From Escherichia phage vB_EcoM-RPN187, in sequence record OL770074.2: 64,000 nucleotides of DNA; one strand, 5' to 3'. The translations under genes were made by a program, and so were the position numbers. The notes beneath the pieces were generated by a model. It was given only the letters and a program-made list of their open reading frames with translations. It was not told the DNA's origin and did not search any database. Positions 2,782-49,547 of the stretch are shown here, piece by piece (the first letter of the stretch is position 1; every line of letters starts with the position of its first letter).

Positions 2782-5107
<2,326 letters not shown>

Positions 5108-11543: not shown

Positions 11544-13112
11544 ATGACTACTATCAAAACTAAAGCTCAGCTCGTAGACAAATGGAAAGAACTGCTGGAA
11601 GGTGAAGGCCTGCCGGAAATCGCTAATAGCAAGCAGGCTATTATCGCTAAAATCTTCGAAAACCAGGAAAAAGATTTCGAAGTATCCCCTGAATATAAAG
11701 ACGAGAAAATCGCTCAGGCATTTGGTTCTTTCTTGACCGAAGCTGAAATTGGTGGTGACCATGGTTATAATGCTCAGAACATCGCAGCAGGTCAAACCTC
11801 TGGTGCAGTAACCCAAATTGGGCCAGCAGTTATGGGTATGGTTCGTCGTGCTATTCCTAATCTGATCGCTTTTGATATTTGTGGTGTTCAGCCTATGAAC
11901 AGCCCGACCGGTCAGGTATTTGCTCTCCGTGCAGTATATGGTAAAGACCCTATCGCTGCTGGCGCTAAAGAAGCTTTCCATCCGATGTATGCCCCGGACG
12001 CGATGTTCTCTGGTCAGGGTGCTGCTAAGAAATTCCCAGCTCTGGCTGCTGACACTACTACTGTTGTAGGTGATATCTATACTCACTTCTTCCAAGAAAC
12101 TGGTACCGTATATCTGCAAGCTTCTGCTATCGTAACACTTGATTCTAGTGCGACTGATGCTGCTAAATTAGATGCAGAAGTTAAGAAACAAATGGAAGCT
12201 GGTGCACTGGTAGAAATCGCTGAAGGTATGGCTACTTCTATCGCTGAACTCCAGGAAGGTTTCAACGGTTCTACCGACAACCCATGGAACGAAATGGGCT
12301 TCCGTATCGATAAACAAGTTATCGAAGCTAAATCTCGTCAGCTGAAAGCAGCTTACTCCATCGAATTAGCACAAGACCTCCGTGCAGTACACGGTATGGA
12401 TGCTGATGCTGAACTGAGCGGTATTCTTGCTACTGAAATTATGCTAGAAATCAACCGTGAAGTTGTTGATTGGATTAACTACTCAGCACAGGTTGGTAAA
12501 TCTGGTATGACCCTGACTCCGGGTTCTAAAGCCGGTGTATTTGACTTCCAGGACCCGATTGATATCCGTGGTGCTCGTTGGGCCGGTGAAAGCTTTAAAT
12601 CTCTGTTGTTCCAGATTGATAAAGAAGCAGTTGAAATTGCTCGTCAAACCGGTCGTGGTGAAGGTAACTTCATTATCGCTTCCCGTAACGTAGTTAACGT
12701 ACTGGCTTCAGTTGATACTGGTATTTCTTACGCTGCACAGGGTCTGGCTTCTGGTTTTAATACCGACACTACTAAGTCTGTATTTGCCGGTGTACTTGGT
12801 GGTAAATACCGCGTATACATCGACCAGTATGCTAAACAGGATTACTTCACCGTTGGTTACAAAGGCGCTAACGAAATGGATGCAGGTATTTACTATGCTC
12901 CTTACGTTGCACTTACCCCACTGCGTGGTTCCGATCCTAAGAACTTCCAGCCGGTAATGGGCTTTAAAACTCGTTACGGTATCGGTGTTAACCCGTTTGC
13001 TGAAAGTTCCCTGCAGGCTCCAGGTGCTCGCATCCAGTCCGGTATGCCGTCTATCCTGAACAGCCTTGGTAAGAACGCTTACTTCCGCCGTGTATATGTA
13101 AAAGGCATCTAA
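11544..13112 (+). CDS. 23: major capsid protein gp23
   Basis: 522 aa; near-identical to T4 gp23 as recalled (MTTIKTKAQL...RVYVKGI). Confidence 0.97.
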   Translation: MTTIKTKAQLVDKWKELLEGEGLPEIANSKQAIIAKIFENQEKDFEVSPEYKDEKIAQAFGSFLTEAEIGGDHGYNAQNIAAGQTSGAVTQIGPAVMGMVRRAIPNLIAFDICGVQPMNSPTGQVFALRAVYGKDPIAAGAKEAFHPMYAPDAMFSGQGAAKKFPALAADTTTVVGDIYTHFFQETGTVYLQASAIVTLDSSATDAAKLDAEVKKQMEAGALVEIAEGMATSIAELQEGFNGSTDNPWNEMGFRIDKQVIEAKSRQLKAAYSIELAQDLRAVHGMDADAELSGILATEIMLEINREVVDWINYSAQVGKSGMTLTPGSKAGVFDFQDPIDIRGARWAGESFKSLLFQIDKEAVEIARQTGRGEGNFIIASRNVVNVLASVDTGISYAAQGLASGFNTDTTKSVFAGVLGGKYRVYIDQYAKQDYFTVGYKGANEMDAGIYYAPYVALTPLRGSDPKNFQPVMGFKTRYGIGVNPFAESSLQAPGARIQSGMPSILNSLGKNAYFRRVYVKGI

Positions 13113-13136
13113 TCTTAATTGATTAAATCTTATTTT

Positions 13137-13160
13137 GGGAGACTTCGGTCTCCCATTTTT
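13137..13160 (+). terminator. intrinsic terminator GGGAGAC-UUCG-GUCUCCC + U-run downstream of gene 23
   Basis: Perfect 7-bp stem with UUCG tetraloop followed by ATTTTT; also flanks the stop of the minus-strand ORF at 13165. Confidence 0.75.
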
Positions 13161-13164
13161 GGTT

Positions 13165-13434
13165 TTATTTCTGTGCAATTTCGATGTAAGTTTTCAAAAT
13201 ATTTTGCCAATTAGGCATACCTTCTTGGACATATGCCGGAGAACCATCTTTGTTTTTGAATGACGCAAGTTTATCAGTGGCCCAATAACCTTTAGCTCGA
13301 GCTTCGGAATCAACTTTCATCCATACTTTGTTGAAGGCATTACCATTAACTTTTGCACCATATTTTTCTACTAATCTAACTGCTTCAGCTTCCAGAACTT
13401 TTAAAGTATCTCGTAAGAAACGTGCTTTAGTCAT
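13165..13434 (-). CDS. hypothetical protein, antisense-oriented early gene between 23 and 24
   Basis: 89 aa, ATG at 13434 preceded by GAGGAG; own early-type promoter upstream; no recognisable motif. Confidence 0.5.
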   Translation of the reverse strand: MTKARFLRDTLKVLEAEAVRLVEKYGAKVNGNAFNKVWMKVDSEARAKGYWATDKLASFKNKDGSPAYVQEGMPNWQNILKTYIEIAQK

Positions 13435-13462
13435 TTTGTTTACTCCTCTGTAGTTGATAAGT

Positions 13463-13494
13463 CTATAGTATCACATACCAAATACGTTGTAAAC
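13463..13494 (-). promoter_or_regulatory. T4 early-type promoter (GTTTAC ... TGATACTATAG) for ORF 13165..13434
   Basis: Reverse complement reads ttGTTTACaacgtatttggtatgtgaTACTATAGa; same architecture as eight other minus-strand promoters here. Confidence 0.5.
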
Positions 13495-13500
13495 AATCTT

Positions 13501-13508
13501 TATAAATA
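13501..13508 (+). promoter_or_regulatory. late promoter (TATAAATA) for gene 24
   Basis: Exact TATAAATA 28 nt upstream of the gene 24 ATG. Confidence 0.6.
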
Positions 13509-13535
13509 ATCTATATCACATAAGGAAAAAATGCA

Positions 13536-14819
13536 ATGAGTAAAATCCAAAAATTATTGCGTGAATCTACAACGTCTACTAGCAACTCAATTGGTCGCCC
13601 AAATCTCGTTGCTTTGACTCGCGCTACGACTAAATTAATATATTCTGACATTGTAGCAACACAAAGAACTAATCAACCTGTTGCTGCTTTTTATGGTATC
13701 AAATATCTTAACCCAGATAACGAATTCACATTTAAAACTGGTGCTACTTATGCAGGCGAAGTTGGATATGTGGACCGAGAAAAAATTACTGAGCTCACAG
13801 AAGATTCAAAAGCCACACTAAATAAAGGCGATTTTTTCAAATATAATAATATCGTCTATAAAGTGTTAGAAGATACACCGTTTGCAGATATTCAAGAAAG
13901 TGATCTAGAACTAGCTCTTCAGATTGCAATCGTTCATTTAAAGGTACGGTTATTTTCAGATGCAGCGGTAACAAGCAAATTTGAAAGCTCTGATAGCGAA
14001 ATTTCTGATGCAAGATTCCAGATTAATAAATGGCAAACTTCGGTCAAATCTCGTAAACTTAAAACTGGTCTCACGGTTGAATTAGCGCAAGATTTGGAAG
14101 CGAATGGATTTGATGCCCCTAACTTCTTAGAAGATTTGCTTGCTACTGAAATGGCTGATGAAATTAATAAAGATATTCTTCAGTCTTTAATTACTGTATC
14201 TAAACGCTATAAAGTTACTGGAATTACTGACACCGGATTTATTGACTTGAGCTATGCATCCGCTCCAGAAGCAGGTCGTTCATTATATCGAATGGTGTGT
14301 GAAATGGTATCACACATTCAAAAAGAGACAACTTATACTGCAACGTTTTGTGTAGCCTCAGCTCGTGCAGCTGCTATTCTTGCTGCTTCTGGTTGGTTAA
14401 AACATAAGCCAGAAGATGACAAGTATCTTTCACAAAATGCTTATGGATTCTTGGCAAATGGATTACCTCTTTACTGCGATACCAACAGTCCGTTAGATTA
14501 TGTTATTGTGGGTGTTGTAGAAAATATCGGCGAAAAAGAAATTGTAGGGTCCATCTTTTATGCTCCATACACTGAAGGAGTAGATTTAGATGACCCTGAA
14601 CATGTTGGTGCATTTAAAGTTGTAGTTGATCCAGAAAGCTTGCAACCGTCTATCGGATTATTGGTTAGATATGCTTTATCAGCAAATCCTTACACAGTAG
14701 CAAAAGATGAAAAAGAAGCGAGAATAATTGATGGCGGGGACATGGATAAAATGGCAGGACGTTCAGACTTGTCTGTTTTACTCGGTGTTAAATTGCCAAA
14801 AATCATCGTTGATGAATAA
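13536..14819 (+). CDS. 24: head vertex protein gp24
   Basis: 427 aa, same length as T4 gp24; gp23 paralogue. Confidence 0.9.
   Translation: MSKIQKLLRESTTSTSNSIGRPNLVALTRATTKLIYSDIVATQRTNQPVAAFYGIKYLNPDNEFTFKTGATYAGEVGYVDREKITELTEDSKATLNKGDFFKYNNIVYKVLEDTPFADIQESDLELALQIAIVHLKVRLFSDAAVTSKFESSDSEISDARFQINKWQTSVKSRKLKTGLTVELAQDLEANGFDAPNFLEDLLATEMADEINKDILQSLITVSKRYKVTGITDTGFIDLSYASAPEAGRSLYRMVCEMVSHIQKETTYTATFCVASARAAAILAASGWLKHKPEDDKYLSQNAYGFLANGLPLYCDTNSPLDYVIVGVVENIGEKEIVGSIFYAPYTEGVDLDDPEHVGAFKVVVDPESLQPSIGLLVRYALSANPYTVAKDEKEARIIDGGDMDKMAGRSDLSVLLGVKLPKIIVDE

Positions 14820-47851: not shown

Positions 47852-49547
<1,696 letters not shown>

Follow-up and report, generated by a model that had tools for sequence, protein, structure and literature searches.

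What is a small gene, read on the opposite strand, doing between the two capsid genes of a T4-like phage? We analyzed a 64,000-nucleotide stretch of Escherichia phage vB_EcoM-RPN187 (sequence record OL770074.2; hereafter, "the window"), in which gene 23 (major capsid protein; 11544-13112, plus strand) and gene 24 (capsid vertex protein; 13536-14819, plus strand) flank a spacer of 423 bp (13113-13535) that holds an ORF of 89 amino acids on the minus strand. A first-pass annotation, made from the letters alone, had read this ORF as a self-contained early transcription unit inside the late head-gene block and had suggested host-takeover or anti-defense cargo. Here, we ask whether the ORF is a real gene, how it would be expressed, how it came to occupy this position, and what kind of product it is likely to encode.

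The source phage is, by the identity of its DNA, an RB69-like Mosigvirus: genomes of that genus (AV117, TU01, PhAPEC2, ST0, and AV110 among them) match the window at 98.6-99.1% identity. The 89-aa gene is not new: more than 200 phage genomes carry it under the label of hypothetical protein, and its signals in RB69 were predicted in 2006. In PhAPEC2, the gene is labeled a hypothetical protein "similar to RB69ORF188c"; the protein from the window is ~99% identical at the amino-acid level to PhAPEC2_170 and to AV110 WPK33856, and its residues 1-89 align with positions 1-90 of the 90-position profile of PHROG 6003 ("hypothetical protein") at E 3.9e-45. These alignments place the gene in PHROG 6003, as an intact orthologue of RB69ORF188c/189c. 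A tblastn search found it in 239 phage records, comprising ~120 from Mosigvirus with at least 95% amino-acid identity and ~119 from Dhakavirus and Gaprivervirus with 30-38% identity. Every T-even record examined (Mosigvirus, Dhakavirus, Gaprivervirus) has it at the 23-24 junction, antisense to both genes. Hundreds of contigs carry an intact form, none of them with a functional name, and no mention of RB69ORF188c, NP_861878, or phrog_6003 was found in the literature.

The basic elements of the gene lie where the first-pass annotation had put them. The coding sequence runs from ATG to stop on the minus strand at 13165-13434 in the ORF list and specifies a protein of 10.2 kDa with a pI of 9.7; a Shine-Dalgarno sequence, GAGGAG (13443-13448, minus strand), can be read 8 nt upstream of the ATG. 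This GAGGAG is kept in RB69 and mogra, and either GAGGAG or a GGAG-like motif stands at the equivalent position in WG01, 04086, and VR20. The GC content is 0.359 for the ORF, 0.333 for the spacer, and 0.382 for the window.

Upstream of the ORF, a promoter scan predicts a T4-type sigma-70 early promoter on the minus strand at 13465-13494, with a GTTTACA -35 element (13494-13488), a 17-nt spacer, and an extended -10 of the form TGA-TACTAT (13470-13465); the A/T-rich stretch TTATTTATAAAGATT lies upstream of the -35, and the predicted transcription start falls near 13458. The early-type promoter that had been proposed for the ORF is thus borne out, and GTTTACA-N17-TACTAT belongs to the phage's early class. 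The pattern TTTACW-N17-TAYWAT is the early-promoter consensus of T4/PST-type PeSLs (PMC4122927; a further source of the consensus is PMC1524935); the window has 8 matches where 0.32 would be expected, every one on the minus strand and that at 13465-13494 among them, and several of the 8 share the same GTGATACTAT -10 region. In the alignment, the -35 element is invariant across the three genera, and an early promoter occupies the equivalent place in WG01, in VR20, and upstream of T4 segD. For RB69, Nolan et al. (2006; PMC1524935) had predicted both an early promoter on the minus strand (Pe:109605, HMM score 29.9) and a late promoter (Pl:109573). Taken together, the motif, its distribution, and its conservation place the promoter of the 89-aa gene in the T4-type early class.

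Back to back with this promoter, on the other strand and 6 nt from the G of its -35, stands the late promoter of gene 24, TATAAATA (13501-13508, plus strand; found by pattern search), which lies outside the cassette formed by the early promoter and the ORF. This octamer is invariant across genera in the alignment and is the annotated late promoter in SA20RB, a phage with nothing inserted at this junction. We infer early expression of the 89-aa gene from its promoter class, from Pe:109605 in RB69, and from T4, in which omics data class segD, the gene at the same junction, together with the nearby genes rnlB, 24.2, and 24.3 as "early RNA" (PMC9697503 supplement); no transcriptome of a Mosigvirus was found in the literature.

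Does the ORF encode a protein that selection has maintained? Nei-Gojobori estimates of dN/dS are low: 0.05 among the Mosigvirus sequences and 0.12-0.25 when unsaturated pairs of the same type are compared. Between genera, its dN is 3-6 times that of gp23 or gp24: in the comparison of the window with WG01, a Dhakavirus, it is 0.72 for the 89-aa gene versus 0.125 for gp23 and 0.24 for gp24. These rates indicate a true protein gene under purifying selection that evolves fast between genera.

The structural prediction points the same way. Given an alignment of 15 homologues, AlphaFold2 produced a confident model of the 89-aa protein (mean pLDDT 92.9, pTM 0.79) with an alpha/beta fold consisting of a helix at 3-25, a helix at 31-48, a beta-hairpin at 52-60/66-70, and a helix at 76-88. 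A Dhakavirus homologue of 31% identity has a BFVD model that superposes on it at a TM of 0.84, and homologues at 30-38% identity keep both the length and the predicted fold. The invariant residues are mostly polar (K3, N30-G31-N32, N35, and Q70, with S57 near-invariant) and are located, in the predicted model, in the loop between helix 1 and helix 2 and in the hairpin. The protein is predicted to be soluble (GRAVY -0.56) and basic, with pI values of 8.0-9.9 across the family; as a basic pI is common in ORFs of AT-rich phages, these values do not by themselves show nucleic-acid binding.

Sensitive homology and structure searches, which had been proposed as the check on the gene's identity, gave a confident model but no relative of known function. 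There was no significant domain match in Pfam and nothing in NCBIfam or PADLOC; sequence searches of the PDB, with the single sequence and with a profile, returned E values of 0.1 or worse (e.g., the BRCT domain of RFC1); Foldseek found nothing in the PDB and only the gene's own family in BFVD; and neither profiles nor folds matched a characterized member of the known anti-defense or defense families. No Rfam model came near its gathering score. DUF4859 matched 2 of 13 family members in Pfam at E 0.005, below its cutoff, and was taken as chance. The earlier statement that neither a GIY-YIG nor an HNH motif nor any recognizable domain is present agrees with these searches, and the protein has no similarity to T4 SegD: a remnant of that endonuclease was considered and rejected, with an hhalign probability of 1.2% and no GIY-YIG or HNH domain in Pfam. 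Nor did a relaxed hmmsearch of six-frame ORFs from the whole window and four T4 loci (most of the genome, apart from the late-gene block at 99.7-106 kb and the final 1.5 kb) reveal a paralogue, the best E value being 0.23.

The family does extend beyond the T-even phages. A HMMER profile search of 1.84 billion representatives gave 10 matches, among them three full-length homologues in unrelated phages (P0021, P0023, and P0014; E 1e-12 to 1e-19). Two other matches, to giant Big_2/Filamin repeat proteins (P0022 and P0024), were judged spurious, since their scores are sums of many weak repeat matches and the matched segment is a helix plus hairpin in our model; one more (P0020) is a chimeric fragment. 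Apart from the spurious repeat-protein hits, everything that the search returned belongs to the family. The homologues occur in three settings: a series of small genes on one strand, with a T7 gene-0.6-like gene among them, in a phage with a neighboring gene resembling those of ~145-kb Klebsiella myoviruses; a Serratia-siphovirus-like contig, with the homologue between the tail-tip gene J and the replication module; and a distant T4-like phage, with the homologue beside baseplate-hub genes. No homology was found among the neighbors in these three contexts that would point to a conserved partner gene. In the first two settings (L011 and L012), a sigma-70 promoter match lies upstream of the homologue and a hairpin downstream; in the third (L018), the promoter matches are all weak and no terminator was called. 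These contexts characterize PHROG 6003 as a family of stand-alone genes, apparently read by the host polymerase where the signals are clear, that has spread horizontally.

How did such a gene come to lie between genes 23 and 24? We surveyed this junction with the joined 23 and 24 flanks as query in a sample of matching T4-like records and can distinguish three states of it. Most Tequatrovirus and the T4-like phages of Klebsiella and Enterobacter have an empty slot (~83 bp); T4, T6, and RB18 have segD there (811 bp); and Mosigvirus and Dhakavirus have the 89-aa gene (~415-430 bp). The earlier statement that T4 has segD in this slot, opposite to the capsid genes, was therefore correct, and so was the view of the junction as variable. 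T4 segD is on the same strand as the 89-aa gene, and its predicted early promoter (T4 107,253-107,281; TTTACA-17-TATTAT with TGn) likewise adjoins TATAAATA; the first ~21 nt from this octamer into the -35 are near-identical between T4 and the window phage, and the cargo is unrelated. The empty slot of SA20RB contains only the hairpin and the late promoter. Since an early promoter accompanies both types of cargo and is missing from the empty slot, each cargo either brought such a promoter with it or was recombined behind one. The comparison presents the 23|24 junction as a three-state slot with unrelated cargo behind the same early promoter. As a side result, T4 segD, for which a review reported finding no early promoter, seems to be preceded by a good one.

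There is also some indication that the cassette moves independently of its flanks. In the metagenomic phage L007, the flanks are as diverged from the window as those of Dhakavirus, yet the gene is of the Mosigvirus type (dN 0.275 vs 0.724). This incongruence, and the higher dN of the gene relative to gp23 and gp24, fit cassette exchange.

Exchange of this kind recalls the PeSLs (promoter-early stem-loops), in which modular shuffling is mediated by the early promoters and stem-loops on either side of ORFans (Arbiol et al. 2010, PMC2839356; Comeau et al. 2014, PMC4122927). As in those units, an ORFan in the window has a strong early promoter matching the PST/T4 consensus exactly and a GC-rich stem-loop, the locus shows insertion, deletion, and replacement polymorphism between related phages, and the unit is transcriptionally insulated. 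The differences are substantial, however. A PeSL is a composite intergenic motif of ~100 bp that recurs around the cargo, whereas in the window ~310 bp separate the promoter from the stem-loop, with the gene in between; each of the two occurs once, with no hairpin upstream of the promoter; the stem-loop is the terminator of gene 23 and faces the other strand; and the slot belongs to the conserved late core rather than to a hyperplastic region.

Two further systems resemble the locus in part. T4 segD shares the slot, the antisense orientation, the promoter architecture at the late octamer, and the UUCG hairpin after gene 23, but it is a free-standing GIY-YIG homing-endonuclease gene of 672 bp rather than 270 bp, and the two proteins are unrelated. 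Like a lambdoid moron, the 89-aa gene stands alone between two conserved late genes, with a promoter of its own and a hairpin downstream, and is dispensable; unlike a moron, it has a terminator that is not its own and a GC content (0.359) close to that of the rest of the genome (0.382), so that it does not have the look of a recent acquisition from the host. The GC content agrees with Nolan et al. (2006), who described the novel ORFs of T4-like phages as "not moronic" (PMC1524935).

The gene can evidently be lost. In the RB69 reference, it is split into ORF188c (41 aa) and ORF189c (29 aa) by a +1 insertion accompanied by clustered mismatches and, further along the gene, a -1 deletion, so that the same gene in the same slot and strand is broken in RB69 and intact in the window. 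In mogra, a -1 change in an A5 run truncates the frame, and the resulting 51-aa fragment recurs on 6 contigs. Because RB69 and mogra are viable isolates with a frameshifted gene, it would not be essential for lytic growth; we regard the gene as dispensable for plaque growth, with the qualification that some of the frameshifts could be sequencing errors. The first-pass annotation had named absence or frameshifting in close relatives, with no effect, as an argument against its reading. Frameshifts do occur in RB69 and mogra, but purifying selection is strong elsewhere, so that they speak for a dispensable gene and not for a functionless one. From the losses it follows that whatever benefit the gene may bring is conditional or small.

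Of the explanations that compete with a useful protein, the one that survives best, which we still consider improbable, is that the locus is a slot-filler, selfish or neutral, in the form of a mobile cassette of promoter and gene maintained as conserved regulatory sequences recombine (PeSL-like shuffling). The protein would be useless to the phage, and occupancy of the junction may also abolish the site that segD-type homing endonucleases target or insert into. It would account for the mutually exclusive presence of the 89-aa gene and segD in the same slot and strand, for the near-identical stretch from TATAAATA to the -35 in T4 and the window phage in front of unrelated cargo, for the L007 incongruence, and for the nonlethal loss of the gene, and PeSL-mediated shuffling is documented (PMC2839356). 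However, the protein has no nuclease or recombinase motif, and the target of SegD was listed as unknown in a 2010 review (PMC2988022). The low dN/dS and the invariance of the polar residues N30, G31, N32, N35, and Q70 in very divergent phages imply a selected activity.

The 3' end of the unit raises a different possibility. Between the convergent genes lies a GC-rich hairpin (13136-13155), with predicted folding energies of -16.8 and -13.5 kcal/mol (z -4.3 and -4.9) and an identical sequence in Dhakavirus WG01. On the plus strand, it has a UUCG loop and the tail TTTTTGGTTT (U tail, 13156-13165), which together make a canonical terminator for gene 23. On the minus strand, the same hairpin stands 10 nt past the stop codon of the ORF, its loop reads CGAA, and AAAAUAAGAUUU follows without a U-run; our scan called no terminator there (AAAATAAGATTT after the hairpin). 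Judged by its sequence, the hairpin is thus an intrinsic terminator on the plus strand only, and the bidirectional UUCG terminator of the first-pass annotation does not stand. The same conclusion can be drawn from RB69, where TransTerm placed the terminator "23-><-RB69ORF188c" on the plus strand only (PMC1524935 supplement). VR20 has a U-tail in the cargo direction. As for the self-contained early unit that had been proposed, its own promoter and its orientation antisense to the late head genes hold up; with a minus-strand hairpin that lacks a U-tract, "self-contained" may be wrong at the 3' end.

If transcription continues past the hairpin, the early promoter could read through into gene 23 and produce an "anti-late" antisense RNA that damps premature capsid expression, with the ORF as secondary cargo. 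In its favor, the minus strand has no U-run after the hairpin, no strong minus-strand terminator was found in the next 1 kb or more within gene 23, the promoter architecture is kept in T4 with other cargo, and anti-late early RNA is established in T4. Against it, the empty slots of most T-even phages lack the early promoter, which argues that antisense control of gene 23 is no general need; VR20 does have the U-tail in the cargo direction; and the protein is under strong purifying selection and conserved in phages where it lies far from capsid genes. We rate an RNA role, and with it the demotion of the ORF to secondary cargo, as slightly less probable still than the slot-filler.

That the protein is a head-assembly or capsid-associated factor is very improbable, the location in the head-gene block being the one observation in favor. 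The gene runs opposite to the head genes, behind a sigma-70 early promoter and with no late promoter of its own; it is absent from T4 and from most of the T-even phages and T4-like phages of Klebsiella, all with the same capsid genes; its homologues occur outside capsid modules; and the PhAPEC2 annotation flags the neighbors as virion proteins and not the 89-aa protein. A chance ORF in an AT-rich spacer, for which the short length and the lack of a known domain might speak, is effectively refuted by the scarcity of such ORFs in shuffled spacers (among 5000 shuffles of the 423 bp, 21 contained one of 89 aa or longer), a dN/dS well below 1, and divergent homologues that keep the length and predicted fold and are detected by HMMER at E 1e-12 to 1e-19.

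We therefore return to the early accessory gene. That the locus is a real early accessory-gene cassette is, in our assessment, very likely; the fuller statement, that it is a monocistronic cassette whose product is a conditionally useful early binding protein, is one that we favor with some reserve. Under this model, host sigma-70 polymerase would recognize the T4-type early promoter and produce a minus-strand mRNA of ~320 nt from near 13458, carrying the strong Shine-Dalgarno sequence and the 89-aa ORF, which ends 10 nt before the gene-23 hairpin. The cassette, made up of promoter and gene, measures ~340 bp and sits between the terminator of gene 23 and the late promoter of gene 24. Its product would be a soluble, basic, 10-kDa alpha/beta protein with no catalytic motif, made in the first minutes of infection, that may act stoichiometrically by binding a host (or nucleic-acid) target and so confer a conditional advantage. 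Unrelated enterobacterial phages have exchanged it as a gene on its own.

As to the function, a binder involved in host takeover or counter-defense seems the most likely class, a choice that we make tentatively. Small early proteins of this type, 60-110 aa in length, include Emp/Gp94 of the Mosigvirus AV110, Dmd, Arn, and TifA, which the 89-aa protein resembles in size, in predicted early sigma-70 expression, in being non-essential and fast-evolving, and in having no enzymatic motif. No sequence or fold similarity to them was detected, however, so that the comparison is one of proteins that may work alike. In AV110, the one Mosigvirus with a toxicity screen of this kind, the screen covered 45 early proteins chosen by homology to T4 early proteins, and this choice left the 89-aa gene out.

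A broader reading is conceivable, and we consider it doubtful as a whole: PHROG 6003 would be a new family of ~10-kDa basic early proteins with an alpha/beta fold not seen before, which inhibit a host factor and spread as a cassette, with the 23|24 junction as a landing pad. If this were true, the inhibited target would be a defense or housekeeping factor of the host, the family would have spread across T-even myoviruses, other myoviruses, and siphoviruses, and its members and segD-type endonucleases would replace one another as cargo behind a shared early promoter.

To the existing annotation of a hypothetical protein, our analysis adds that the gene is protein-coding, fast-evolving, and dispensable, that it has moved between unrelated phages, and that it occupies a three-state slot. 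RB69 offers a natural null that can be compared with its intact relatives. In the biology of these phages, the 89-aa gene would be an ordinary accessory cassette, and it makes a modest but cheap candidate for anti-defense and toxicity screens.

The small gene between genes 23 and 24 falls into two deep types, and their distribution can be compared with that of the flanking head genes. In a 173-kb metagenomic T4-like phage (L007), gp23 and gp24 share 83% and 71% amino-acid identity with their counterparts in the window, a divergence like that seen in Dhakavirus. Its small gene (L007 4001-4273) is nevertheless the Mosigvirus-type version, at 63% amino-acid identity, so the two types do not track their flanks. 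The adjoining vertex gene 24 also varies among relatives: it is present as two tandem paralogues in Dhakavirus, Gaprivervirus and two metagenomic relatives (L002 1-2394, L003 1-2399, L007 1337-3901 and L009 1338-3897), and as a single gene in the window, T4, the metagenomic relatives L016 and L019, and Dhakavirus phage 04086.

Some recorded copies of the small gene are frameshifted. In the RB69 reference (L020 1792-2032; NC_004928 109,291-109,531), a +1 and a -1 frameshift, together with a cluster of mismatches, divide it into ORF188c and ORF189c; the split marks a pseudogene unless it stems from an old sequencing error. In phage mogra (L004 1501-1769), an A5 run carries a -1 change that leaves a 51-aa fragment, which recurs on six independent contigs.

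Homologues are also found beyond the T4-like phages. In two unrelated phages, L011 and L012, the small gene is bracketed by composites of a hairpin and a sigma-70 promoter (L011 4271-4340; L012 3869-3943 and 4263-4280), as in L011, where a hairpin at 4271-4288 is followed by TTGACA-17-TATACT at 4312-4340. These composites resemble the PeSL (promoter-early stem-loop) motifs of T4-type phages, although they lie outside that group. On a distant T4-like contig (L018 3590-3862), the gene two positions downstream of the small-gene family member matches a DUF5417 (T4 frd.1-like) small protein of the window (49329-49547, minus strand) at 53% identity.

In T4, where segD occupies the slot, a good match to the T4-type early promoter (TTTACA-17-TATTAT with TGn) precedes segD on the minus strand (L006 1254-1282; approximately 107,253-107,281 in NC_000866), 7 nt from gene 24's TATAAATA. 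A 2010 review of T4 mobile elements stated that a segD-specific promoter was not found and that the segD transcript was expected to be vanishingly rare (PMC2988022). Both the promoter match and time-resolved omics of T4, which list segD as an early RNA with detectable protein (PMC9697503 supplement), are at odds with that account.

Exact matches to the published consensus, TTTACW-N17-TAYWAT, number eight in the window (positions 13465, 16309, 28519, 38841, 40967, 42373, 43556 and 63718) against 0.32 expected, and all eight lie on the minus, early-gene strand; several have GTGATACTAT in common. Together, these sites amount to a map, ready for use, of the window's candidate early promoters.
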